Positions 3,747 through 64,000 of a stretch of DNA of 64,000 nucleotides are shown here, in pieces. The position numbers and the translations under genes were made by a program. Origin of the DNA: an uncultured Candidatus Saccharibacteria bacterium (GTDB taxonomy: Bacteria > Patescibacteriota > Doudnabacteria > UBA920); contig CAZHIA010000007.1 in assembly GCA_964532425.1 (NCBI GenBank), positions 8 to 64,007 on the forward strand, in the 5' to 3' direction. The notes beneath the pieces are model-generated. The model saw only the letters and a program-made list of their open reading frames with translations, did not search any database and was not told where the DNA came from. Within the stretch, counting starts at the first letter, position 1. Every line of letters starts with the position of its first letter.

Positions 3747-5855
3747 ATGGCTTCCCGAAACCCGTATCCCGATGAGCAGCCCTATGCGCAGGCTCAGGTC
3801 CCGGCCCATCGTCCCCGGAAGAAGTCTTCCGGCGCAGGCCTGGGAGTAATCATGGTCTTGTTTTCGCTGATCTTCATCGTCGGCCCGTTTGCGGCCCCGA
3901 TCAAGATCGACAGCTTAAGCCGGCTCATTCTGCTTGGCTTTGGCGTGCTCACGCTGCTCATTGGCAGCATCATTTTGGTCATCACGCGGCTCTACATGAA
4001 GGCTTCGGCGAACGAAGCGTTCGTCAAGACCGGCATGGGCGGCCGCAAGGCTATCATCGACGGCGGCGCCATTGTGGTGCCGGTCGTGCATGAAGTCATT
4101 TGGGTGAGCCTCGAGACTATGAAACTCGAGATCATTAAGATGGCCAAAGATGCGTTGCTGACCATGGACAAGCTGCGTGCCGACATTCGCGCCGAGTTCT
4201 TCATTCGCGTGGAGAAAACGCAAGAAGGTGTGTTGCAGGCAGCGACCTCCCTTGGCGACCGGTGCAGTGAGCCGGCGGCGGTCAAACAACTGGTGGAAGC
4301 CAAGCTGGTTTCCGCTCTGCGCGTCGTGGCTGCGACGATGAATCTCGAGGACCTCAACAAGAACCGTGATAAGTTCGCGGAAGAGGTACAGAAGATTGTC
4401 CAGAACGACATCAAGCATAACGGCTACATGCTGGAAACCGTGACCATTTCGCACTTGGACCAGGCGCCGAAAGACACGCTCGATCCCGAGAATAACGTGT
4501 TCGACGCTGAAGGCGCGCGCAACATGGCGGCCAAGATCCAGGTTCAACTGACCGAGAAGACCGAGATCGAACAGAAGCAGGCGGTCGCTCGCGTAAAGCT
4601 GAAGGCTGCTGCCGAGCAGGAAACCAAGCAGCGCGAAGTCGAGAAGAACGAGTTCATCTTCCAGCAGGACGTCGCCAACACGAAGGCCCAGCAGGACACC
4701 GAGCTGCAGAAGAAGCAGATTCAAGCCGAAACGGCCCGCAAGACTGCTGAAGTCGAAGCGGAAAATACGGCTGCATCAGAAGCGGTGAGGGCCCAGAAAG
4801 GCCGTGAAGCGCAGGAAGCCAAGATCATCGCGGAACAGGCTGTCCAGCTTCGTAACGTGGCCAAGGAACAGGCCGTGCAAGTAGCGAACACGGTTAAGGA
4901 AAAAGAAGTTCAGGCCGCACAGATCGATCGCGATACGCTGATCAAGACCAAGACCGTCGAACAGCAGAAAGACATCGAGACGGCTACGGTCGAAAAGCAG
5001 AAGGCAGTGGAAGTCGCCAAGCGCAACCAGGAAATCACGATTGCGACCAAGGAGCAGGAACTTGCCGCCGCTGCAGCCGCTAAGCTGACCGCCGAAGCCG
5101 ATCGTGAACGGGCCAACCAGGCCAAGCTTACGGTCGAGAAGGAAGGTGAAGCCCAGCGTGCCAAGACAGTTGTGGTCATCAACAAACAGGCCGAAGCCGA
5201 ATCTCGGCAGATTGAGCAGCAAACGCAGGTAAACGTCGAGGCGTATCGCACGACCAAGCTTGCCGAAGCTGAACAGCTTGCTGCGGAGAAGACGGCGACG
5301 GCTGTCCGTACGAAGGCTGAAGCCGATCGTGACGCCAAGCAGATGGCAGCGGCTGGCGATCAGGCTGTTGCGTTGGTGCCGGTCCAGGTCAAGCAGGCCG
5401 AGGTCGATGTCGAAGCCAAGCGGGTCACGGTCCTCAAGTCCGAACTCGAAGCCAAGACAGCCAACGAGAAGATGGCGTTCGATCTGCAGGTCAAGTTGGC
5501 CGAGATCGCGGCCGACCGCGATGTTCGCATGAAGGCTGCCGAGTCTCTCGGCGCCGCCTTAAGTGGTGCGAATATGACCATTTGGGGCGACCAGCGGACC
5601 CTGGAGCAGATCTCGGGGGCGTTCTACGCCGGCCAGCAAAAGGGCAAGTTCATCGAAGGGGTTGCCAATGCCACGCCGGCTGACGTCAAGGAAGCGGTGT
5701 TCGATTCCGTCGAGCGCATCTCCGGGGCAGTCTCCAATCTGGCCAAAAACATGTTCGGCAAGGATATCTCGCCGGACATGATCGCAACGCTGGTTAACGC
5801 GGAGCTGGAGAAGCAGCGTACCGGTGCGCCGGCCGCGGCATCCGCCAAGGCGTGA
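3747..5855 (+). CDS. Flotillin-like SPFH/Band-7 protein (YqiK/FloT family) with an unusually long E/A/K/Q-rich coiled-coil tail (702 aa).
   Basis: N-terminal TM hairpin, an SPFH-like segment (IIDGGAIVVPVVHEVIWVSLETMKLE...) and a long EA-repeat region. AGGAG RBS. Terminator follows. Confidence 0.8.
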   Translation: MASRNPYPDEQPYAQAQVPAHRPRKKSSGAGLGVIMVLFSLIFIVGPFAAPIKIDSLSRLILLGFGVLTLLIGSIILVITRLYMKASANEAFVKTGMGGRKAIIDGGAIVVPVVHEVIWVSLETMKLEIIKMAKDALLTMDKLRADIRAEFFIRVEKTQEGVLQAATSLGDRCSEPAAVKQLVEAKLVSALRVVAATMNLEDLNKNRDKFAEEVQKIVQNDIKHNGYMLETVTISHLDQAPKDTLDPENNVFDAEGARNMAAKIQVQLTEKTEIEQKQAVARVKLKAAAEQETKQREVEKNEFIFQQDVANTKAQQDTELQKKQIQAETARKTAEVEAENTAASEAVRAQKGREAQEAKIIAEQAVQLRNVAKEQAVQVANTVKEKEVQAAQIDRDTLIKTKTVEQQKDIETATVEKQKAVEVAKRNQEITIATKEQELAAAAAAKLTAEADRERANQAKLTVEKEGEAQRAKTVVVINKQAEAESRQIEQQTQVNVEAYRTTKLAEAEQLAAEKTATAVRTKAEADRDAKQMAAAGDQAVALVPVQVKQAEVDVEAKRVTVLKSELEAKTANEKMAFDLQVKLAEIAADRDVRMKAAESLGAALSGANMTIWGDQRTLEQISGAFYAGQQKGKFIEGVANATPADVKEAVFDSVERISGAVSNLAKNMFGKDISPDMIATLVNAELEKQRTGAPAAASAKA

Positions 5856-5887
5856 ACCAGAGTTGAGTGCTCGTATTGATTGACAGT

Positions 5888-5924
5888 GCCCGTCCTCCGA
5901 TGTTGGGGGACGGGCTTTTCTTTT
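5888..5924 (+). terminator. Rho-independent terminator GCCCGTCC...GGACGGGC + TTTTCTTTT after the flotillin gene.
   Basis: 8-bp GC stem followed by a T-tract. Confidence 0.7.
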
Positions 5925-6002
5925 GAGATGGCGAATGCGTTAAGCCTTGACACGAAGACGATTTTTCAGTAACCTGAGTGGAAGCCAAAAGGAGGGTAAG
6001 TC

Positions 6003-6755
6003 ATGACAGTTCAGGAAGAAAAGCCAATAGGCGAGACAGGATGGGAACAGCAGGCTGCTGCAGACATAAAACGGTTGGCTACGAGCGAACCGAGGATGGT
6101 GTTTCAACGGACGCCCGCTATTGAACGCGCGTTTACGCTGTCCGGTCGGCTGCTGTGCTGCGGAGATGAGGGTGTACCGCACGGGGTGCACCTGCCGGGT
6201 TCCGGCGTGCTGCTGCCTCTGGAAGAATTGAAGGCGGTAGTGGCAGCTGCTGGCATCGAGGAGTTAACCTCGCACGACAACTGCGGGGCTTACCGGATGA
6301 AGTTCCCGGGCGACCAAAATCCCAATCGCGGCGCGGAAGAGTGGGGGAGAAGGACCGCTTCCTTGCTGGGGATCAAACATCGCCATATTACCGCAGCGGG
6401 CATGGATCGCCCGGTCAGCCTGCATGCGGCAACCTGCGTGTACTACGATGGGACGGGATCGTTTAATCGAATCCCCGGATTGCCGAGCGGGTTCGTGGTG
6501 AGCCGAAGGTTTTCTCCGACTGGCTTGCAGGACTTGCAGCGATATCTCAGCATAGCGTTCGGTGAACATGGACTCGGTGATCGGCTTACGCCGCGGCAAC
6601 CGTTCCATGTCATTGTTCTGCCACACCCGACCGACCTGGGTTTGTCGCATAAAGTGCTCTCAAGAGAGGCGGTGCAGGCAGTTGTTCCGTACGGCCGCCG
6701 CGTGAGAGTCGGCGTGGTCAAGACCGGCTGGCATATGCGCAATCTTGCGCAGTGA
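6003..6755 (+). CDS. Hypothetical protein (250 aa), no family recognised.
   Basis: AAAGGAGGG RBS 6 nt before the ATG. Clean ORF between two terminators. Confidence 0.55.
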   Translation: MTVQEEKPIGETGWEQQAAADIKRLATSEPRMVFQRTPAIERAFTLSGRLLCCGDEGVPHGVHLPGSGVLLPLEELKAVVAAAGIEELTSHDNCGAYRMKFPGDQNPNRGAEEWGRRTASLLGIKHRHITAAGMDRPVSLHAATCVYYDGTGSFNRIPGLPSGFVVSRRFSPTGLQDLQRYLSIAFGEHGLGDRLTPRQPFHVIVLPHPTDLGLSHKVLSREAVQAVVPYGRRVRVGVVKTGWHMRNLAQ

Positions 6756-6775
6756 CGTGTCTTATATCCTAATGG

Positions 6776-6809
6776 CCAGATACCGTAGTTGCGGTGTCTG
6801 GTCTTTTTA
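6776..6809 (+). terminator. Rho-independent terminator CCAGATACCG-TAGTTG-CGGTGTCTGG + TCTTTTTA.
   Basis: 10-bp stem with a G.T wobble, then a T-tract. Confidence 0.65.
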
Positions 6810-6958
6810 TTTGTGAATCTTTAAAGACGGAAATGCTGCCCGCCCTTATAGGAGATGGGTTGGTGGTCCGCTAGGGGGTTGTGCGTAGCAGAGAATCTTT
6901 AAATCTTTCTATTTTTCAATCTTTAAATTTAGTCCCCGTTGGGCGGGGTCTTGGGTCC

Positions 6959-6987
6959 TTGACCTCTCTTGACAGGCATGGTAGAAT
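6959..6987 (+). promoter_or_regulatory. Putative sigma70 promoter for uvrA: TTGACC, a 17-nt spacer, then TAGAAT.
   Basis: Near-consensus hexamers with optimal spacing, about 220 nt upstream of the uvrA ATG. Confidence 0.5.
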
Positions 6988-7205
6988 GAGGACTGCTTAT
7001 ATCTCTATAAATAATCCCGGCTGATTTTAGAGTAGTTTCGAAATTTTCTTCCCTGTTTCGGCGTCATTCTGAGGGAGTGCATCCGACCGAAGAATCTCAT
7101 TTGAGATCCTTCGCCCTTCAGATGCATTCAGGACTCAGGATGACGCCAGAACAGGATTTGAGAACAGACTCTAATATTACCGTCTGAAGCTGATAATAAT
7201 TCTTT

Positions 7206-10055
7206 ATGGACAACAATAAAATTTCTATCCGCGGAGCGCGGCAGCACAATCTGAAGAATGTGGATGTCGATCTGCCCCGCAACAAACTGATCGTCATGAC
7301 CGGGTTGTCCGGCAGCGGCAAGTCGTCTTTGGCGTTCGATACCATTTATGCCGAAGGCCAGCGCCGCTATGTGGAATCCCTGTCCGCGTATGCCCGCCAG
7401 TTCATCGGGCTCATGGATAAGCCGGATGTGGACAAAATAGAGGGCCTTTCCCCGGCCATTTCCATCGACCAGAAATCCGCCAGCCATAACCCGCGCTCGA
7501 CCGTGGGTACGGTGACGGAAATTTACGATTACATGCGCTTGCTCTACGCCCGCATTGGCATCCCGCACTGCCCGGTCTGCGGTAAGAAAATAGCCGGTCA
7601 GACCATTCAGTCTATGGTTGACCAGCTTTTGGCTTTCCCTGAAGCCACGCGCGTCATTCTGCTTGCCCCGTTCATCAAGGACCAGAAAGGCGAGCACAAG
7701 GTTATCTTCGAACAGATCAAGCGCGCCGGGTTCGCCCGCGTGCGCGTAGACGGCGTACTGATGGATTTGGCCGAAGCCCAGCGTTTGAATTTGGACAAGC
7801 AGAAGAAGCACAGTATTGACGTGGTAGTGGATCGTCTTTCCATCTCCAAACAGGACAAGGGCAGAATTGCCGAAAGTTTGGAAAAAGCCGTTGACCTGGG
7901 CGATGGTATTGCCATGGTGCTTGTGATGAAAGGGGATAAAGCGGAAAAGGAACTCACCTTGTCGCAAAAGTTTGCCTGTCCGGACGGACACATTCAGCTT
8001 TCTGAACTTGATCCGCGCGATTTTTCCTTTAACAGCCCGCATGGTGCCTGTCCGGAATGCAAGGGTCTCGGGACCAAGCTGACGGTGGAACCTGACCTGG
8101 TCATCCCGAATCCCAAACTGACCCTGGCCGAAGGAGCCATCCGTCCCTGGAGCAAGACTACCTCGCGCCTGTCCTGGTACAGCCGCATTATGCAGGCTGT
8201 GGCCAAGGAATATGGTTTTTCCGTTAACACCCCGGTCAAGGACCTGCCTAAAAAGTTTGTGGATGTTATTCTGTACGGCACCGGCGACAAGAAGGTTAAG
8301 GTGGCGGGGGAATTTACCACGCGCGAAGGCGAATTTGAAATGATGACTGCGTTTGAAGGTGTTATCGGCAATTTGGAACGCCGCTACAAGGAGACGGATT
8401 CCGACTATATGCGCGGCGAGATCGAGAACTACATGCGCATCCGCACCTGCCAGGTCTGCCATGGCAAGCGCCTCAAGCCCGAAGTGCTCGGTGTGACTGT
8501 AGGGGACTGCAACATCGTGGATGTTTCCAATATGACCATCGAAAAAACGGCGGACTTTTTCAATACGCTCCCGAAGAAAATTTCGGGCAAGGACCAGGAA
8601 ATAGCCAAGCAGGTCTTAAAGGAGATTAACGCGCGCCTGTCGTTCCTTTTAAATGTTGGCTTGTCATACCTGTCGCTTGACCGCACCGCAGACACCTTGT
8701 CCGGCGGGGAAGCGCAGCGCATTCGTTTGGCTACCCAAATAGGCTCCGGCCTGACCGGTGTCCTCTATATATTAGACGAACCATCCATCGGCTTGCACCA
8801 GCGCGACAACGGCCGCTTGCTGCAGACACTCAAGGATTTGCGTGATTTGGGTAATACTGTCATTGTCGTCGAACACGATGAAGAGACCATCCGCGAGGCT
8901 GACTGGGTCGTGGACATTGGGCCGGGTGCCGGCAAGCACGGCGGGGAAATTGTGGCCGAAGGAACACCCAAGCAGATTGAGAAGGACACCAAGAGCGTGA
9001 CCGGGCAGTATTTGTCCGGCAAGGAAATGATCGAGGTGCCCAAACGCCGCCGTCCGGGCAATGGCCGCAAAATTTCCGTAGTCGGAGCCGAAGAGTTTAA
9101 TTTAAAAAATGTCAGCGTAGACATCCCGCTTGGGAAATTCGTCTGCGTGACTGGTGTGTCCGGTAGCGGCAAATCCACCTTGTTCAATGATATTCTGGCC
9201 AAAGCCCTCTATAAATACTTCTGGGGCAGCAAGGACGAGCCGGGCAAGCACAAAAAGATTTTGGGCATGGAGCATATCGACAAGATCATCAACATTGACC
9301 AGAGTCCTATTGGCCGCACGCCGCGGTCGAATCCGGCCACCTATACCGGACTGTTCACGCCCATTCGCGAACTGTTTGCGGATACGCGCGAGGCGCGCAT
9401 GCGCGGCTACAAGGCCGGGCGCTTCTCGTTCAACGTTAAAGGCGGACGCTGCGAACGCTGCGCCGGCGACGGCGTGCTGCGCGTGGAAATGAACTTCTTG
9501 CCTGATGTCTATATTACCTGTGAGGAGTGCCACGGTAAGCGCTATAACCGCGAGGCGCTGGAGATCCACTATAAAGAACGGACCATTTCTGATGTTCTGG
9601 ATATGACCGTAGACGAGGCTAAGACCTTCTTCGCTTCGGTGCCGGCCTTGTTTAAGAAGCTGGAAATTTTGTCGCAGGTCGGTCTGGGTTACATGCGCCT
9701 CGGTCAGAATGCCACGACCCTGTCCGGCGGTGAGGCCCAGCGCATTAAGCTGGCTACGGAACTTTCGCGCGCCAGCACGGGCCGTACCTTGTATCTTCTG
9801 GATGAGCCGACCACCGGGTTGCACTTTGCCGATGTGAAGAGGTTGATCCACGTTTTGAACCGCCTTGTCGACAAAGGCAACACGGTTGTGGTCATCGAGC
9901 ACAATCTGGATATGATCAAGACTGCGGACTGGATTGTTGACCTCGGACCCGAGGGAGGGGACAAGGGCGGGACCATCGTGGCCACCGGCACGCCTGAAGA
10001 CATTGCTAAAGTAAAGGCGAGCTACACGGGGCAGTATCTGAAAAGCATACTATAG
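7206..10055 (+). CDS. uvrA: Excinuclease ABC subunit A (UvrA).
   Basis: 949 aa. Two ABC ATPase modules with Walker A ([24 protein letters not shown]), LSGGE signatures and zinc-finger Cys pairs. N-terminus [24 protein letters not shown] is typical of UvrA. Confidence 0.96.
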
Positions 10056-10994: not shown

Positions 10995-11100
10995 GGCTGG
11001 GTACTACTAGTGGAACCTGTAGCGTACCGGTTCATCGGCAACCCAAAGCCCATAAACCTGTCCCGTCGAATGACGGGATGGGCACGCTACAAAATCGTTC
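10995..11100. repeat. Structured element copy A, closed by GTAGCGTACC...GGCACGCTAC, containing a CCCGTC-GAAT-GACGGG hairpin and a TTGCCGATGAAC core.
   Basis: The outer 10-nt inverted repeat and the inner conserved block TTGCCGATGAAYCGGYACGCTAC are shared with a second copy at 17163..17220. Confidence 0.5.
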
Positions 11101-13739: not shown

Positions 13740-14117
13740 GAGGTAAAACAAATGCAGCGGTCGCACCTCGTGCGGCCGCTCTTTTTATTTGGTGTTAGCA
13801 CATGTTAACGTACCCCCCTCCCGTCAGTCCGACTGACGGACTCCCCCTATGTAGGGGGAGAGTGACTGCAAGGTGTAGGTCTTCTTACCATAGTAAGTGA
13901 GACGATCTGTTTCCTGCAGTGATGTAGGGGAAGCTACTAGCTTCCCTTGTTTGTGTGAGGGCGGTTAATAACCGCCCCTACATCAGAAGCAGCGGGTTAC
14001 AATTGTTCCAAATTTTTTATTTTTCTATCTTTCTATCAACAGGCCTGCACTACATTGAGATGGTGATCGTCTCAATAAAAAATGCCCCGCCCAAAGAACA
14101 AAGGGCGGGGTGTGTTG

Positions 14118-17220: not shown

Positions 17221-17264
17221 TGTTTCGAAGGAACGTTCGAGATTGTTGTCTCGCTTTTGCTTTT

Positions 17265-17435
17265 GTAGGGGCGGGTCGAGACCCGCCCAGAGAAGAGGAA
17301 CGGTCGAGACCGTTCCCTACAGCTGTAGTGCAGGCCCGTGGCCTGCAATGACAGCCAGGTATTTAGGCAGGCCACGGGCCTGCACTACAAGAGAGCCAGT
17401 TCCATCTGCCTGTAGGGGCGGATAGTATCCGCCTG
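17265..17435. repeat. Cluster of GC-rich REP-like palindromes, including a 22-bp-arm inverted repeat GTAGTGCAGGCCCGTGGCCTGC...GCAGGCCACGGGCCTGCACTAC (17325..17388).
   Basis: Four consecutive hairpins (GGGCGGGTC-GAGA-CCCGCCC, GGAACGGTC-GAGA-CCGTTCC, the 22-bp-arm IR, and GGGCGGATA..ATCCGCC). Related copies occur at 10196..10245, 13841..13984, 28900..28975, 29229..29282 and 38140..38215. Confidence 0.6.
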
Positions 17436-28847: not shown

Positions 28848-29159
28848 ACATACGTTTCCTTAATTACTCTTGTCTCTTGGTTATGTATGACGGGCGCCTC
28901 CTGCCTGCCGGCAGGCAGGGTCGGCAGCCCCTACACTGCTGCTTTTCATCGTAGGGGCGTGCGACAGCAGCCCGTTCCCACACATTTTAGTATAAGACGT
29001 AGCAGTAAGAAATTTGTAGCAAATAAAAGGGCGTCTTCCTAATGAAGTCAGCTTAAGGATTAGCACTTGACCCTGCTTCGCATAAAGCTGGGCAGGGCGA
29101 GCATCAGGTAGTGTTTTTTAAGAGAGGCTCGTTTTAGACGACTCTGGTGAAAGAGGGGA

Positions 29160-29226: not shown

Positions 29227-29286
29227 CTGTAGTGCAGGGCCGTGCCCTGCCCTCAAGAAAGCAGGCCGAGGGCCTGCACTACATCT

Positions 29287-30777: not shown

Positions 30778-31149
30778 ATGCAGGATTCAAACAAGCAGTT
30801 CAAGGTAGAACTGAAAAAGAGGGTCTATGTTTGGGTTTTGCGCTTAATAAGGTTCTTGAAATCCTTACCGAAAAATTATGTATTTGAGGTATTAGGGAAG
30901 CAGCTATTGAGAAGTGGTACAAGTATCCTGGCTAATTTTATAGAAGCTCAAGCTGCTTCTTCAAGAAAGGATTTTACAAATTTTATTAATCATAGTTTGA
31001 AATCAGCAAATGAAACGAAGGTTTGGTTAAGTCTGTTAAAAGATTCTTTATCTAAAGACTATGAACGTGAAGCAGGTGGGTTGTTAAAAGAAGCAATTGA
31101 ACTATCAAATATTTTTGGAAGTATTGTAACTACGTTGCGGATGAAGTAA
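30778..31149 (+). CDS. Four-helix-bundle protein (the family often found in 23S rRNA intervening sequences), AT-rich, apparently inserted between grpE and dnaK.
   Basis: About 120 aa helical protein matching the four-helix-bundle family (VLRLIRFLKSLPKNYVFEVLGKQLLRSGTSILANFIEAQAASSRKDF...). Flanked by imperfect inverted repeats (AAAATGAAAAATTCAAAGTT / ACTTTGAATTTTT). Confidence 0.7.
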   Translation: MQDSNKQFKVELKKRVYVWVLRLIRFLKSLPKNYVFEVLGKQLLRSGTSILANFIEAQAASSRKDFTNFINHSLKSANETKVWLSLLKDSLSKDYEREAGGLLKEAIELSNIFGSIVTTLRMK

Positions 31150-38069: not shown

Positions 38070-38287
38070 AGTGTAGCGGTTTTACGGCTTTTGTCAAAGC
38101 ATAAAAATTCCTAAGAAGTCTTAGGGGCTTTTATGGCGAGGCAGACCGCGCCCTGCACTGGATGGTGCAGGGCGGGGATTCCGCCTCGTGGCCCTGCAGG
38201 GCCACTTCGTTGTCCGGGGCAGGGGAGACTAAGGTCCGGCGGGGATACATCCTACGCTAAAGCTTCGGAGTACTGGAGTCGGTCGCC

Positions 38288-38575
38288 TCACGCTGCGCTT
38301 AGATACCCTCTGACCATTTGTCTCAAAGTAACCTTTCCTTTGGTTGTTTTGAAGTAGGATTCTCTTCGTAAAGCGTCTTTCTTGGACGGAAAGGCTTCGT
38401 AGAAGATTAGTTCAAGAGGGCGTCGGTCTTTCGTTGACACGTTTTTCCCGGAATTATGATCGCGTACTCGGGTTTTTAAATTCTCGGAATAACCAATATA
38501 AAACAGCCTATCTTTGAGGCTGCGAAGTATATACACATAATGAAATTGTATTGGCATATAGTTAGCGGTTACCAT
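38288..38575 (-). CDS. GIY-YIG nuclease superfamily protein (UPF0213-like).
   Basis: YVYILRS...LFYIGYSENLKTRVRDHN...KTTKGK matches the GIY-YIG core. The true start may be the internal Met (MPIQFHYVYIL). Confidence 0.7.
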   Translation of the reverse strand: MVTANYMPIQFHYVYILRSLKDRLFYIGYSENLKTRVRDHNSGKNVSTKDRRPLELIFYEAFPSKKDALRRESYFKTTKGKVTLRQMVRGYLSAA

Positions 38576-38747
38576 TGTTTATAGTATACCACTAGTATAA
38601 AACACAAGCCGTGTACCGCTCGCTACGACATAAATGTCGGCTCGGGTACACGGCATGAACCAGTCGCACATAGTTTCGCGCCCATAAACTTACTCAAGTT
38701 CGTGGCCGTGCCATGAACCGGAGCGAATTTGATGAGCGACTGGTTCA

Positions 38748-38823
38748 TGGTGGGTCCGGCGGGGATCGAACCCGCGACAAACGGCTTAAAAGGCCGCTGC
38801 TCTACCAACTGAGCTACAGACCC
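38748..38823 (-). tRNA. tRNA-Lys (anticodon UUU), with encoded CCA.
   Basis: Reverse complement reads GGGTCTGTAGCTCAGTTGGTAGAGCAGCGGCCTTTTAAGCCGTTTGTCGCGGGTTCGATCCCCGCCGGACCCACCA. Canonical cloverleaf, anticodon loop CTTTTAA. Confidence 0.9.
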
Positions 38824-60354: not shown

Positions 60355-62055
60355 TTATTTCGTGGTGCTTGCCGTCCTGTTTTGCTTTGTCGTTTGCAGT
60401 TGTGCCGGCGTGGTGGTCGGTAATTTCATTAGCGTCGACGTGGCAGTGCGCGACGGGAGCGTAGAGGTCGGGAGATAGTCGGGGGTAGAGGTGGAAAGGT
60501 CGGTGTTCAGGTCGGTTTCCGGTGTGGCGGTTGCTTTGCGGGATGGTGGTGCAATGTATGGAGCCGGATCAGGTTCGACAAGAGCATCCTGGCCTAGTAT
60601 CACTATCGCGTCGACGCGGTCTTTGGAAATGTGCACGCTCGGCGGGGGCAGGGTAACTTCGCTGGCATTTAGCGTGTTGGTGATGAATTCGACCGTCGCC
60701 GGCTTTGGGTTAGCTTGATACACAATGGAATGGGGGAGATTGTCTTTGCTATAGGAAAGCTCGAATACGGTAATCCCCGCGTCGACCAGTTTGCGATAGG
60801 CGGTTTTATACGCTTGCTTATCGCCGGTCGACGAGGCCAGCCAGACCGTAGCCTGCTCCGAATTGAGCCGGCTGATGGCAAAACTATTCTTAAAGAAATT
60901 CTTAATGTCTTCCTCGCTTTTACCCGGGCAGGGGACTAATACATAGGCACCGTTGGATTCCAGAATCTCCGGGCACACCATGTTTGTTTCGGGGTCAAGG
61001 CTGAGTGAGGCGGTGGACAGGTTCTTTTCGCGCGCGATGGAATACAGGCGAAAGATCTCGCCGGGACCAAGGTTGGTATGGAAGTGGTCGGCGAATGTAT
61101 CGAGCAGGCTGTTAATTTTGCCCGCATCGGTAATCATATTCAACTGGAAGACTCTAGATTTGAAAGCTTCTATGATCTTTTGCTGCCGCTGACCGCGGGC
61201 GAAGTCTGACCCTTCTGGCCCGGCGGCATGCCGCGACCGGGAAAAGATGAGGGCGCGCGAACCATTCATATGCTCGTCGCCTTCCTTAAAGGTTACTGGC
61301 GGCAGATAGCCGTTTGTCGCGTCGTTGGGGTAGCTGTAGTCCGTGAATGTGCGGTCTATGTGCACATCGACACCTCCCACTTGGTCAATAGCTTTCTCAA
61401 ATCCATTGAAGTCGATGACCGCGAAGTACGGTACCGACAATCCGGACATTTTTTCTACGGATTGCCGGGCCCATTGCCCGGCTGTGTTGTAGTCATGGGA
61501 TTTGGAATAGCCTTGGGCAAAAGCGGCATTGATCTTTTGCTGTCCGAAGCCGTCAGGCAGGTCTGTCAAATAATCGCGGGGAATATGGGTCAAGGTGATC
61601 TGTCCAAGGTCAGGGCGGATTTGAGCCAGGATGATGGTGTCGGTGAGGTATGGTCCATCATGACCTTCGCCGCCGATGCCAAGCAGGAGAATGTTCACCT
61701 GCCCCAGATCCTCGCCTTGGAGCTGAGTTTGGCCGGAAGACCCGCGGATAATTTCTCCGATCTTATGGATAAAGCTGGTCTTTTGACCGACGAAAATTTT
61801 ATTGGAAAGGTTGATTGCCCGCGCCGCTACATACACGCCTGCTGCTAACAAGCATAAAAAAATAAGCGCAAGGATGGTTTTAAATATCTTGCGCGGCTTC
61901 TTGGCCGTAGTCGTGCCGAGCAGGTCGACTTTGGCGGGGGAGAGGCCGGTGCTGACTGTCACCCGGGGGCCGTGCAGGGAAGGCTTTTGGCCAGACTCAA
62001 TGGAATCGAAATTTTTCATGCGTATTTCCTGGTGCGTCCGCAGCGGTAGCGTCAA
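60355..62055 (-). CDS. LytR-CpsA-Psr (LCP) family cell-envelope phosphotransferase with a C-terminal Thr/Pro-rich extension.
   Basis: N-terminal TM helix. LCP core (NILLLGIGGEGHDGPYLTDTIILAQI...THIPRDY...). The true start may be the internal MKNFDS. Confidence 0.8.
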   Translation of the reverse strand: MTLPLRTHQEIRMKNFDSIESGQKPSLHGPRVTVSTGLSPAKVDLLGTTTAKKPRKIFKTILALIFLCLLAAGVYVAARAINLSNKIFVGQKTSFIHKIGEIIRGSSGQTQLQGEDLGQVNILLLGIGGEGHDGPYLTDTIILAQIRPDLGQITLTHIPRDYLTDLPDGFGQQKINAAFAQGYSKSHDYNTAGQWARQSVEKMSGLSVPYFAVIDFNGFEKAIDQVGGVDVHIDRTFTDYSYPNDATNGYLPPVTFKEGDEHMNGSRALIFSRSRHAAGPEGSDFARGQRQQKIIEAFKSRVFQLNMITDAGKINSLLDTFADHFHTNLGPGEIFRLYSIAREKNLSTASLSLDPETNMVCPEILESNGAYVLVPCPGKSEEDIKNFFKNSFAISRLNSEQATVWLASSTGDKQAYKTAYRKLVDAGITVFELSYSKDNLPHSIVYQANPKPATVEFITNTLNASEVTLPPPSVHISKDRVDAIVILGQDALVEPDPAPYIAPPSRKATATPETDLNTDLSTSTPDYLPTSTLPSRTATSTLMKLPTTTPAQLQTTKQNRTASTTK

Positions 62056-62196
62056 TTCTTAAAGGCTGCATGGTACAAGCAAGTCGCGTTTATTATACCG
62101 TAAATCGAAGGTTTGTGGTAGTGTGTTTTGATTAAGAGGAGGTATTGGGTAAATGCGTAATTTGTTGCTGTCATAGATCGTTATAAAGTAGTTATC

Positions 62197-62270
62197 TCGC
62201 GGATACGCGGATAACGCTAAAGCCGCAAATACCTATTCCAGCGCATTCCGCGTTATCCGCGTATCCGCGA
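62197..62270. repeat. Inverted repeat with 21-bp perfect arms TCGCGGATACGCGGATAACGC...GCGTTATCCGCGTATCCGCGA separated by 32 nt.
   Basis: Exact arms read from the sequence. Related CGGATACGC motifs occur at 41322..41347 and 43835..43900. Confidence 0.8.
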
Positions 62271-62397
62271 AAGAACTAGCATAAATCGAGAAAGGGTCGA
62301 GAGCTTGTCAACCAGTTGCATAACGTTCAAAGGAGTGATATAGTTTACCCAGCGCTGTGTGAAAATTTTCGTCGACGGCGCATGCTTACGCAAACTT

Positions 62398-62419
62398 GGA
62401 CCTGTAGCTCAGTTGGTTA
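62398..62419 (+). other. tRNA 5'-fragment 1 (GGACCTGTAGCTCAGTTGGTTA, 22 nt) with no matching tRNA body.
   Basis: Identical to the first 22 nt of the fragment at 62538. It is followed by unrelated hairpins rather than D-stem closure or an anticodon arm. Confidence 0.5.
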
Positions 62420-62537
62420 TCCGCCAAAAGGCCGCAGGCCATTTAGGCGGACCCGCAACAATGTTCGCCTTCGGCGAACTTTGGGCGGGGAGCACGCCGT
62501 TTCACCCCGCACCTTTTGTTTACTTTTATTTGAGGAC

Positions 62538-62586
62538 CTGTAGCTCAGTTGGTTAGAGCGTTCGACCTGCCTGCCGGCAGGCAGGT
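62538..62586 (+). pseudogene. tRNA 5'-fragment 2 (27 nt through the D-arm) fused to a 22-nt REP-like palindrome ACCTGCCTGCCGGCAGGCAGGT. No anticodon or T arm follows.
   Basis: GGACCTGTAGCTCAGTTGGTTAGAGCG, then the palindrome (also present at 28900..28919), then the flank of tRNA-Val. Confidence 0.5.
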
Positions 62587-62611
62587 TCACACCCGCCCCG
62601 TCACCTATGCT

Positions 62612-62688
62612 TGGACAATTAGCTCAGCTGGTTAGAGCGCGCCGTTCACATCGGCGAGGTCACTGGTTCGAATCCAGTATTGTCCACC
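62612..62688 (+). tRNA. tRNA-Val (anticodon CAC), with encoded CCA.
   Basis: GGACAATTAGCTCAGCTGGTTAGAGCGCGCCGTTCACATCGGCGAGGTCACTGGTTCGAATCCAGTATTGTCCACCA. Canonical arms, anticodon loop TTCACAT. Flanked by a perfect 13-bp inverted repeat CCCCGTCACCTAT / ATAGGTGACGGGG. Confidence 0.88.
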
Positions 62689-62760
62689 ATAGGTGACGGG
62701 GTGAAAAAGGTCAGAGGTTCGCCAGGTCATCCGACCTGGCGTCCGGTCGAATGACCGGAC

Positions 62761-62781
62761 GAATCCAGTATTGTCCACCAC
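62761..62781 (+). repeat. 21-nt direct duplicate of the tRNA-Val 3' end (CGAATCCAGTATTGTCCACCA); att-site-like scar.
   Basis: Exact copy of 62668..62688, 72 nt downstream, preceded by a GTCCGGTC-GAAT-GACCGGAC hairpin. Confidence 0.7.
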
Positions 62782-63118
62782 TTCTTCGCCAAAGCTACGA
62801 AGTGCAAGCACTCACTTGCTATGTACGTTGGCGGTGAAGCGGGGTTTCAAAATATAGTTGCGAAGAAGTGTACTGCGAAGCTTTATGCGGAGCAGTGCAG
62901 TGCAATCTTTGTGTTAAGGCCTTATGCCGAAGTAAAACCTGTAACTCAGACCGTGTTCCTCTTGCAATATTTTGGTGCCTGTGGTAAACCCAGGCACCAA
63001 AGCGGAAACTACGAGGACTGAATTGCTGAAGTGGGCCATAATCAAGAATTTAAATCTGTACTCTTGCAATATTTTGGTGCCTGGGTAAAATGAACTTACA
63101 CTAATATATTTTCATTCT

Positions 63119-63721
63119 ATGGAGACGGGTGGAAACAAAAATCATGAGCAGCAGCCAAGCACGATGAGTGAGATAGGGTCTTTTTTCTGGGACCTGTTCA
63201 AGATTTTTTTGGTTGCTCTCGTTATTATTATCCCATTCCGCATTTTTGTAGCCGAGCCGTTCGTGGTATCCGGTTCCTCCATGGTGCCTAACTTCCACAA
63301 CCGCGATTATTTGATCGTTGACCGCCTTAGTTACCGGAGCCACGCCCCGCAGCGGGGAGATGTGGTGGTGCTGAAATACCCAAAGGATACGAGCCAGTAT
63401 TTCATTAAGCGCATTATCGGGCTGCCGGGTGAGACAGTACAGTTCGAGGGCGGACATGTCGTGATCATAAATAGCAGCCATCCGCAAGGCTGGATTTTGA
63501 ATGAACCGTACTTGCAGAGCCAGGTAGAGACGATCGGACGCCGCGACCCGCTGACATTGCGGGAAGGTGAATATTACGTTTTGGGAGATAATCGCACGGC
63601 AAGTTCCGATTCTCGCGTCTGGGGAGTGTTGCCGGCTGATGATATTGTGGGAAGAGCCTGGCTGAGAGTATTCCCGGTCGGCAGTTTTTCCGTTGTAAAA
63701 ACACCAACATACAATCAATAA
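63119..63721 (+). CDS. lepB: Signal peptidase I (LepB).
   Basis: TM helix, then the SGSSMVP catalytic Ser box, the GDVVVLKYP/KRIIGLPGE Lys box, and GDNRTASSDSRVWG. Confidence 0.85.
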   Translation: METGGNKNHEQQPSTMSEIGSFFWDLFKIFLVALVIIIPFRIFVAEPFVVSGSSMVPNFHNRDYLIVDRLSYRSHAPQRGDVVVLKYPKDTSQYFIKRIIGLPGETVQFEGGHVVIINSSHPQGWILNEPYLQSQVETIGRRDPLTLREGEYYVLGDNRTASSDSRVWGVLPADDIVGRAWLRVFPVGSFSVVKTPTYNQ

Positions 63722-63816
63722 TTTAAAAGATTGACATGATTGGTCAGGATTGACAAGATTGCCAGTCCTCATTCATGTTCAATCATTTAATTCTTTTAAA
63801 TCTTGTCAATCTAACT

Positions 63817-64000
63817 ATGGGCAGACCCAAAAAGAATCCGACGGCTGCAGCCGTGCCTCCGAAGAAGATATTAAGCCTGGACGGTTTAAACGATGTTTTG
63901 TCAGAAACTGATGTGCTGTGGGATGCAATCCTACGGCGTTTGACGAAGGTTTCCCGCACCTACGGATTCTTTCGCGTGGAAACGCCGTTAGTCGAGGATG
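63817..64000 (+). CDS. 5' end of a class II aminoacyl-tRNA synthetase gene, HisRS-like (truncated by the window end), with a short basic N-terminal extension.
   Basis: LDGLNDVLSETDVLWDAILRRLTKVSRTYGFFRVETPLVED aligns with the HisRS N-terminus (IRGMNDYLP...W..IE..L..V...YGYSEIRLPIVE). Confidence 0.45.
   Translation, partial: MGRPKKNPTAAAVPPKKILSLDGLNDVLSETDVLWDAILRRLTKVSRTYGFFRVETPLVED

Follow-up and report, generated by a model that had tools for sequence, protein, structure and literature searches.

Within the 64,000 nucleotides analysed here (the window; contig CAZHIA010000007.1 of assembly GCA_964532425.1, from an uncultured Candidatus Saccharibacteria bacterium that GTDB places in Doudnabacteria), the tRNA-Val(CAC) gene occupies a single locus, a 1.06-kb gap between a gene of the LytR-CpsA-Psr (LCP) family and lepB. 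This gap also holds several partial tRNA sequences, concentrated at 62398-62781. In order to assign them, we compared by BLAST the tRNA-Val alleles of all relatives with the flanks of the gene (450 nt on either side) and found, from left to right, a 5' piece, a second 5' piece, the intact gene, positions 43-58 of a tRNA-Val variant that we call B-type and, finally, positions 57-77. Only the intact gene is called by ARAGORN, even with introns of up to 400 nt allowed and lowered thresholds; the outer pieces go unrecognised when their inserts are removed in silico, even at thresholds of 80-90%. The outer acceptor strands, GGACCTG and ATTGTCC, mispair at three of their seven positions, the T stem and the anticodon stem are also broken, and short palindromes lie in the D, anticodon and T loops. 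The outer fragments are dead tRNA-Val pieces, not unusual complete tRNAs, and they wrap concentrically around the live gene instead of marking the two ends of an island.

The live gene is part of a cassette of about 110 bp, devoid of any open reading frame (ORF), with ends reading CCCCGT...ACGGGG and then TGAA. A perfect 14-bp inverted repeat surrounds the gene (CCCCGTCACCTATG at 62596-62609, CATAGGTGACGGGG at 62688-62701); it reaches 18 bp with imperfect pairing, and its right arm overlaps the final two bases of the CCA end. The cassette interrupts an earlier gene, a B-type tRNA-Val, in its anticodon loop after position 37; what survives of this gene is 5' piece 2 and the 3' piece. The former scores 22.1 bits with the Rfam tRNA model, for a gathering score of 29, and the first segment of the latter, AAAGGTCAGAGGTTCG, is 94% identical to positions 43-58 of the gene found at a related locus, L106. 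Piece 1 is a still older 5' half, starting from the native promoter and ending at the anticodon in a degenerate cassette end. Its first segment (1a) matches tRNA-Val positions 6-22 by BLAST, and the anticodon stem of its second segment (1b), CGCCG, is that of the inner gene and of the alleles of two relatives, L097 and L099. As for the degenerate end, TTTCACCCCG-CACCT matches the reverse complement of the cassette right end at 15 of 16 positions, with one gap.

Two exact direct repeats link these layers. The 5' repeat, GGACCTGTAGCTCAGTTGGTTA, lies at 62398-62419 and 62534-62555 (0 matches in 100 shuffles), and the 3' repeat, CGAATCCAGTATTGTCCACCA, at 62669-62689 and 62760-62780 (none in shuffles). 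The copies of the latter are 91 nt apart from start to start, and the 70 nt between them are taken up by the cassette end, tRNA positions ~42-57 and two hairpins. The initial annotation of this stretch had already described the intact tRNA-Val(CAC), two identical 22-nt tRNA 5' ends that never complete a cloverleaf, a 22-nt palindrome into which the second of them runs, a perfect inverted repeat and a second, exact copy of the last 21 nt of the tRNA. All these features are present, and the palindrome does measure 22 nt when its arms are counted as 62565-62575 and 62576-62586, after tRNA position 31; corrections concern the start of the second 5' end (62534, not 62538), the length of the inverted repeat (14 bp, not 13) and the gap between the 3' repeats (70 nt, not 72).

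The borders of the locus tell which parts are resident. A promoter box of the form TTGC..GTGRTATAKT aligns upstream of tRNA-Val in 10 related loci, 25-75 nt from the gene; in the window, this box precedes the first 5' fragment and is ~270 nt away from the intact gene (a generic consensus promoter scan left 62316-62344 unflagged). On the other side, two relatives (L099 and L091) have a homologous flank, a hairpin and a conserved box (CTTCTTCGCC ... GAAGAAGTGTACTGCG), directly after the CCA end of their tRNA; in the window, BLAST places this conserved flank after the second, outer copy of the 3' end. As the promoter and the native flank lie beyond the debris, to its left and right respectively, the resident gene is the one extending from 62398 to 62780, and all that lies between, live gene included, was inserted. 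The nested order and the outer native flanks thus indicate that a small tRNA-bearing cassette was inserted into a resident gene, and not that the repeats are the attL/attR of a tyrosine-integrase island, as first proposed. Indeed, the repeats enclose 70 nt only, the pieces are nested around the live gene, and no integrase was found: a Pfam scan of the 50 largest of the 53 candidate ORFs of the window gave no integrase, transposase or recombinase (about 20 of these 50 ORFs had no Pfam match at all), no integrase appears among the annotations of the next 10 kb downstream, and 62398-62781 itself contains neither an ORF nor an ORF remnant. From the earlier proposal of repeated integration and excision, or of island decay, the repeated invasion of the tRNA gene stands; its agent and its geometry do not. 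Coordinates of all features are listed in Table 1.

Table 1. Features of the tRNA-Val(CAC) locus and its two neighbouring genes (window coordinates).
Feature	Position	Strand	Description
LytR-CpsA-Psr (LCP) family gene	60355-62055	minus	
Native tRNA promoter box	62316-62344	+	TTGCAT 62316-62321, 17-nt spacer, extended -10 GTGATATAGT 62335-62344
5' piece 1a	62398-62419	+	tRNA positions 1-21 of an old tRNA-Val copy; exact 22-nt repeat of 62534-62555
Two GC-rich hairpins, D loop of piece 1	62420-62489 (62420-62451, 62452-62489)	+	from sequence and fold
5' piece 1b	62490-62505	+	GAGCACGCCGTTTCAC; tRNA positions 22-36
Degenerate cassette left end, then AT-rich spacer	62506-62533	+	CCCGCACC
5' piece 2	62534-62565	+	tRNA positions 1-31 of B-type tRNA-Val, anticodon stem TTCGA
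20-nt palindrome	62566-62585	+	CCTGCCTGCCGGCAGGCAGG; between anticodon stem and loop of piece 2
TTCACA	62586-62591	+	anticodon-loop positions 32-37 of piece 2; last bases 5' of the cassette; aligned with L006 and L106
Cassette	62592-62705	+	CCCG, left arm 62596-62609, CTT, tRNA 62613-62689, right arm 62688-62701, TGAA
Intact tRNA-Val(CAC)	62613-62689	+	ARAGORN; Rfam 68.8 bits; only functional-looking copy
3' piece, first part	62706-62721	+	AAAGGTCAGAGGTTCG; tRNA positions ~42-57, B-type; variable loop and T arm
Two 18-nt hairpins joined by CG, T loop	62722-62759	+	CCAGGTC-ATCC-GACCTGG, then TCCGGTC-GAAT-GACCGGA
3' piece, second part	62760-62780	+	tRNA positions 57-76/77; native flank directly after
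Native downstream flank	62779-62885	+	hairpin arms CACTTCTTCGC / GCGAAGAAGTG, then GAAGAAGTGTACTGCGAAGCTTTA
lepB	63119-63721		

The small hairpins inserted in the dead pieces deserve a separate description. The 20-nt palindrome of piece 2 has an identical copy at 28900-28919 and copies of 95% identity in two other genomes of the Candidate Phyla Radiation (CPR), L058 and L079, which bears out its initial labelling as similar to repetitive extragenic palindromic (REP) sequences. The T-loop hairpins, of 18 nt with a core TC-GRAT-GA and paired via CG, occur in dead tRNA pieces of two genomes: a double hairpin at 5660-5697 of another related locus, L006, has the same architecture and tRNA position as 62722-62759 in reverse orientation. 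By eye and unscored, the two doublets show compensatory stem changes around the same loops and, also by eye, the structure resembles a 38-nt element inserted in the palindrome TTCGAA with duplication of CG. A single hairpin of the TCGAATGA type lies at 11061-11078, and no further copies of the two D-loop hairpins turned up in the DNA examined. GC-rich intergenic hairpin clusters, many of them GTAG-headed, and inverted doublets of the REP/REPIN type are also seen at 11020-11090, 13820-13980, 17260-17430, 28900-28919 and 29230-29285. Dispersion as short intergenic palindromes, which characterises REP/REPIN sequences, is found for the debris hairpins and not for the tRNA cassette; no RAYT (Y1 HUH) transposase gene was detected by Pfam in the window, which covers 64 kb of the genome. 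On inspection, insertions in dead tRNA pieces (in the window, in L006 and in a third locus, L108), which are not independent events, invariably fall at loop-coding positions, and this suggests a mechanism preferring hairpin loops.

We then turned to the same locus in relatives, since the order LCP gene, tRNA-Val(CAC), lepB is kept in twelve species-level relatives. The arrangement is not the same in all of them, a comparison that the initial annotation had called for. Eight of the twelve related loci (L003, L091, L095, L097, L098, L099, L104 and L054) have no tRNA debris by BLAST within 450 nt on either side, with possible decayed 3'-end-like remnants further downstream in L097 and L098 (by eye, unscored). 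Debris is present at four loci: the window, L006, L106 and the group L108-L110. The window belongs to a Patescibacteria (CPR) genome of the Doudnabacteria type, and its best LepB relatives carry the same annotation. One has to keep in mind that housekeeping proteins of these relatives are 50-72% identical to those of the window, and that genomes whose locus is plain match or exceed L006 in similarity to it.

L006, on a 949-kb Doudnabacteria contig from a different study, carries the same cassette, with junctions identical to those of the window over 25/25 and 27/27 nt. LepB, LCP, Der and HisS are 59-62% identical between the two, and the remaining intergenic DNA cannot be aligned. Its layers are cleaner: positions 1-15 of an A-type tRNA-Val, B-type 19-38, the intact gene, B-type 43-77 and A-type 37-58, where A-type matches the intact tRNA-Val gene of L003. 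The empty site is found in L106, where 2725-2801 is an undisrupted B-type gene; the same gene is filled in the window, L006 and L108, so that filled and empty sites are compared between different species, not strains. Just 3' of its B-type gene, L106 has a remnant of the cassette tRNA 3' end and ACGGGGTGA, that is, the reverse order of replacement. In a further lineage, represented by three separate assemblies (L108, L109 and L110), the B-type scaffold recurs in inverted orientation with respect to lepB; its D-loop position is taken up by an intact tRNA-Val unit whose repeat differs, and its anticodon-loop position by a 100-bp AT-rich CCCCGT...ACGGGG unit. Compared with L006, the contents of the two positions are thus swapped, and the AT-rich unit is oppositely oriented relative to the scaffold. 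A single inversion was considered for this swap and rejected, since neither the middle tRNA piece nor the live gene is reversed; we also asked whether the AT-rich unit is a decayed tRNA, which by eye it does not resemble. In the alignment, the junctions of the window cassette are better conserved than the anticodon stem of its own tRNA. The inner tRNA-Val genes are mosaics, with common acceptor and T arms and anticodon stems of the local type.

The site between tRNA-Val and lepB is a hotspot. In L097, the tRNA is separated from lepB by a 4.9-kb island (5094-10000) that contains a truncated large serine recombinase as well as small unknown ORFs and shows no tRNA repeat at its far end; in L098, the same gap contains a ParE-type toxin module (4395-4933).

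In order to know how general the design is, we surveyed flanking inverted repeats for 44 tRNA genes in all the DNA examined. Against a background of 4-8 bp, the window and L006 reach 14 bp and one other case 11 bp; CPR tRNA genes do not in general have such a repeat around them. The 11-bp case is a tRNA-Arg(CCU) on the minus strand of L059, a Giovannonibacteria genome (815-1075). Its unit measures exactly 100 bp from CCCC to GGGG, has a 16-bp repeat, CCCCCACACCAATTCC, resembling that of the AT-rich unit, and is flanked by CTTG on the left and TGAAG on the right, as the D-loop position of L006 is. An older tRNA-Arg surrounds it, the 3' part of this older gene coming after the unit, so a repeat-bounded tRNA inside a dead copy of the same tRNA is a design that extends beyond tRNA-Val and beyond a single lineage. 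L006, L108 and L059 have units that share the ends of the window cassette.

Non-coding units with CCCCGT..ACGGGG hairpin ends were observed at L006 5334-5433, at L108 2335-2434, 2613-2713 and 2778-2846 (69 bp) and at L030 12131-12228. Four of these five are about 100 bp long, and two are homologous AT-rich copies inside dead tRNA-Val pieces. Direct repeats of 4 bp (CTTG or TAAA) flank the other three, which are in L030 and L108; two of this trio are located at a promoter -35 box, CTTGAC. A 100-bp unit of L068 was dropped from this family, together with L064, as it lies inside a 16S rRNA gene and resembles an expanded native rRNA hairpin. The L068 gene itself (1-1739, Magasanikbacteria) is a partial one, whose 1739 nt cover 811 positions of the 16S rRNA model; it therefore contains large insertions, one of which is a 100-nt hairpin apparently replacing, by eye, a native rRNA hairpin. 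Rfam found nothing besides tRNA on the related loci.

Upstream of the tRNA-Val gap and its two neighbouring genes lie der, pth and dprA; downstream come hisS, a HIT-family gene, rpsU, yqeY, ftsA and ftsZ, and the annotated genes of the 10 kb 3' of the locus are housekeeping genes. The debris region is far more structured than its shuffles when folded (z = -7.9), and Rfam at permissive thresholds reported tRNA alone over 61500-64000, with no group I intron or other family. The independent Logan assembly of run SRR11567520 (L001) matches the right-hand part of the locus base for base, and its contig ends within the tRNA. Closer to lepB, a promoter-like box (CTCTTGCAATATTTTGGTGCCTG..TAAA) is found in two copies 102 nt apart (62959-63090), with inverted repeats of 11-14 bp in between. 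Elsewhere in the window, an ORF of the "23S rRNA intervening sequence protein" family is located between grpE and dnaK in the heat-shock operon (30778-31149).

Our preferred explanation, to which we give somewhat more credence than doubt, is that the tRNA-Val locus has been overwritten more than once by small foreign DNA carrying its own tRNA-Val. The nesting of dead pieces around a live gene on a repeat-bounded unit, and the recurrence of this design, are well supported. That the unit is mobile and moves between lineages is what we infer from junctions identical at ~60% protein identity, from the empty and filled sites and from units at other positions and in other orientations. Insertion into an essential single-copy tRNA gene would survive only if the unit brought a working copy of the same tRNA; cargo and target would then coincide (Val inside Val here, Arg inside Arg in L059) because only rescuing insertions survive. 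The intact tRNA would probably be transcribed from the old promoter through the debris, then cut out by ordinary tRNA-processing enzymes. The moving enzyme would have to act in trans, and candidates include a transposase recognising the terminal repeats, a hairpin-specific enzyme of the HUH type acting on single-stranded DNA or a small GIY-YIG homing nuclease. More tentatively, and with the balance tilting to doubt, the CPR might harbour a family of hairpin-ended units of ~100-115 bp (CCCC...GGGG, flanked by CTTG/TGAA) that insert into tRNA-gene loops and persist because some of them carry the tRNA they disrupt.

Several observations weigh against this explanation. The Pfam scan described above revealed no transposase, integrase or recombinase, no clean target-site duplication is seen at the tRNA-bearing units, and 64 kb contain one copy and one degenerate end, which is not what an abundant repeat family looks like. 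The outer letters (CYYG on the left, TGAAR on the right) are constant at two tRNA positions and for either orientation of the AT-rich unit; the facts are therefore described equally well by a hairpin "slot" already in place, the content of which can be exchanged. As the relatives are all about equally distant, horizontal transfer rests on junction identity and not on a tree, and the mismatch between the outer 5' (GGACCTG) and 3' (ATTGTCC) strands implies that recombination between copies has mixed the layers. Scans outside these genomes were not more favourable: the right junction GGTGACGGGGTGAAAAAGGTC gave five chance matches in metagenomes, of which the one inspected lay in coding sequence, and no tRNA was found in any of the five; scans of viral contigs with the right end, the 5' part of the inner tRNA, the end of the AT-rich unit and the left junction returned nothing or chance matches to coding sequence without a tRNA; and BLAST against phages and plasmids retrieved generic tRNA bodies only.

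Miniature inverted-repeat elements, REPINs and the Rickettsia palindromic elements, which are found inside genes, are non-coding elements of ~100 bp with terminal inverted repeats, which form a long hairpin and depend on a trans-acting enzyme. The cassette is like them in its size of ~100 bp, its terminal inverted repeats, its hairpin and its location inside a gene; terminal inverted repeats, small size, absence of coding capacity and a pair of empty and filled sites are all found here, whereas many copies are not, in 64 kb. Those families are abundant and gene-free, while the cassette is rare per genome and brings a functional tRNA into the gene for the same tRNA. The nearest parallel that we found in print is the tRNA-Thr of Caldiarchaeum subterraneum, where a 5' fragment is followed by a 1.8-kb recombinase-encoding element and a replacement tRNA (PMC3293823). 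In both cases, an orphan 5' fragment precedes a more recent copy of its tRNA, and a mobile element is invoked; the published one is archaeal, with its own recombinase and an intron-containing new copy, whereas ours is bacterial, encodes nothing and is nested. In the part of the literature that our search covered, we found no description of a non-coding repeat-bounded unit with a complete tRNA nested in its own gene.

Among the alternatives, the one that survives best, although we consider it rather unlikely, is turnover by homing endonucleases: GIY-YIG cassettes would cut a tRNA gene lacking them, repair would copy the cassette together with a replacement part of the tRNA, and the nuclease ORFs would since have been deleted at tRNA-Val. 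It overlaps with our preferred explanation and differs from it mainly in the enzyme and the mode of entry. Such nucleases are found beside other tRNA genes of these genomes. On the minus strand of the window, tRNA-Lys(UUU) (38748-38823) is followed by a stand-alone GIY-YIG ORF of 95 aa (38288-38575), beyond which positions 58-71 of the tRNA are repeated exactly over 14 nt (38233-38246 matching 38753-38766); the stretch 38233-38823 looks like a nuclease cassette of ~0.5 kb bounded by a repeat of the tRNA 3' part, and this repeat begins in the T loop, as does the 21-nt repeat of tRNA-Val. In another CPR genome (L077, 3628-4391), two tRNA-Ile 5' fragments have a 14-nt palindrome in place of the anticodon, a GIY-YIG ORF of ~90 aa comes after each of them, and an intact tRNA-Ile(GAU) is the last in line. 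From these two layouts, nuclease cassettes duplicating tRNA parts therefore exist in these genomes, and GIY-YIG cassettes are a candidate cause for some of the tRNA-Val layers, notably the 21-nt repeat. The mosaic inner tRNA-Val genes are also what co-conversion during repair would yield. The tRNA clusters of phage T4 offer a precedent, with free-standing GIY-YIG homing endonucleases such as SegB (PMC2988022, PMC13096335): a small GIY-YIG gene beside a tRNA, with neighbouring tRNA sequence duplicated or co-converted, is a layout also seen at tRNA-Lys and at the L077 tRNA-Ile, in CPR chromosomes instead of a phage. A nuclease ORF inside the insert, present at these two places, is however absent from the tRNA-Val debris, without even a remnant, and the nested units of L006, L108 and L059 have no nuclease gene either. 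Homing, moreover, neither needs nor explains the conserved inverted-repeat ends.

We regard as improbable the repeated integration and excision of integrase-borne islands, of which the fragments would be leftover attachment sites once the island bodies had been deleted. The exact 21-nt repeat of the tRNA 3' end starting in the T loop speaks for them, as do the displaced A-type 3' part downstream of the B-type 3' part in L006, which serial replacement of 3' ends predicts, and the presence of the serine-recombinase island of L097 and the toxin module of L098 at the exact site. A direct repeat of the 3' part is all that was found of the expected structure, however: there is no adjoining integrase, by Pfam in the scanned ORFs or by annotation within 10 kb downstream, and no island between repeat copies 70 nt apart. 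Integration at the 3' end would leave no orphan 5' halves upstream, nor would it place a complete gene, with an inverted repeat around it, within an anticodon loop, and the L097 island has no bounding tRNA repeat and a recombinase of the serine type. Integrases are reported to prefer certain sublocations within tRNA genes (Williams 2002). Partial tRNA genes left by integrating elements are well documented in prokaryotes (PMC9897764). The cassette resembles those elements in targeting a tRNA gene, in restoring it and in displacing a part that remains as a non-functional partial copy and a direct repeat; it differs from them by having no integrase or island, measuring ~110 bp, bringing a whole tRNA within an inverted repeat and leaving both 5' and 3' halves behind.

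An explanation without any mobility fares no better in our eyes: an old local duplication of the tRNA would have decayed in place, the inverted repeat being an RNA processing stem and the junctions being kept by selection under vertical descent. Junctions better conserved than the anticodon stem would fit, and so would the strong structure of the region and the location of the debris between promoter and gene, because of which it is probably transcribed. However, the gene is plain, with neither debris nor repeat, at eight related loci whose divergence is similar or smaller, related units are found at other sites in either orientation, and after so long a time neutral pieces would have lost any recognisable likeness to tRNA. 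Where the stem lies with respect to the tRNA ends also varies among the window and L006, L108 and L059; a fixed-geometry bulge-helix-bulge or RNase III-type processing stem was rejected on this ground.

An assembly artefact, with strain variants of the locus stitched together, is very improbable: the Logan contig of the same run does break inside the tRNA, and the region is thus hard to assemble, but its right half was reproduced independently and the same nested architecture recurs in the 949-kb L006 contig of another project and in L108-L110. Finally, although insertions in the D, anticodon (37/38) and T loops fall where archaeal tRNA introns occur, we give almost no credit to a functional tRNA of the multi-intron or split kind seen in some archaea, with the outer pieces as its exons and the inner tRNA in an intron, and we rejected it since the insert-free copies do not fold into anything ARAGORN recognises, its intron mode finds nothing, the acceptor strands mispair at three of seven positions with T and anticodon stems broken, Rfam sees no group I intron or other family, and pairing of the junctions gives, by inspection, no bulge-helix-bulge motif.

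Mobile DNA classically lands in tRNA genes. The elements known to do so run to kilobases, carry an integrase gene of their own and repair no more than the severed end of their target; at ~110 bp, with no coding capacity and with a whole replacement tRNA nested in its predecessor, the unit described here would be a minimal form of this strategy. For annotation, tRNA-like fragments and palindromes around CPR tRNA genes are to be read as scars, not as unusual genes, and genomes can be searched for a concrete pattern, an inverted repeat that encloses a tRNA and lies between two halves of that tRNA. If the CPR does harbour a family of such units, they would be self-rescuing, gene-replacing mini-elements that move between lineages, drive the turnover of tRNA alleles and leave concentric dead layers behind; a unit of this kind would also explain the horizontal turnover of single-copy tRNA alleles in the tiny genomes of the CPR.

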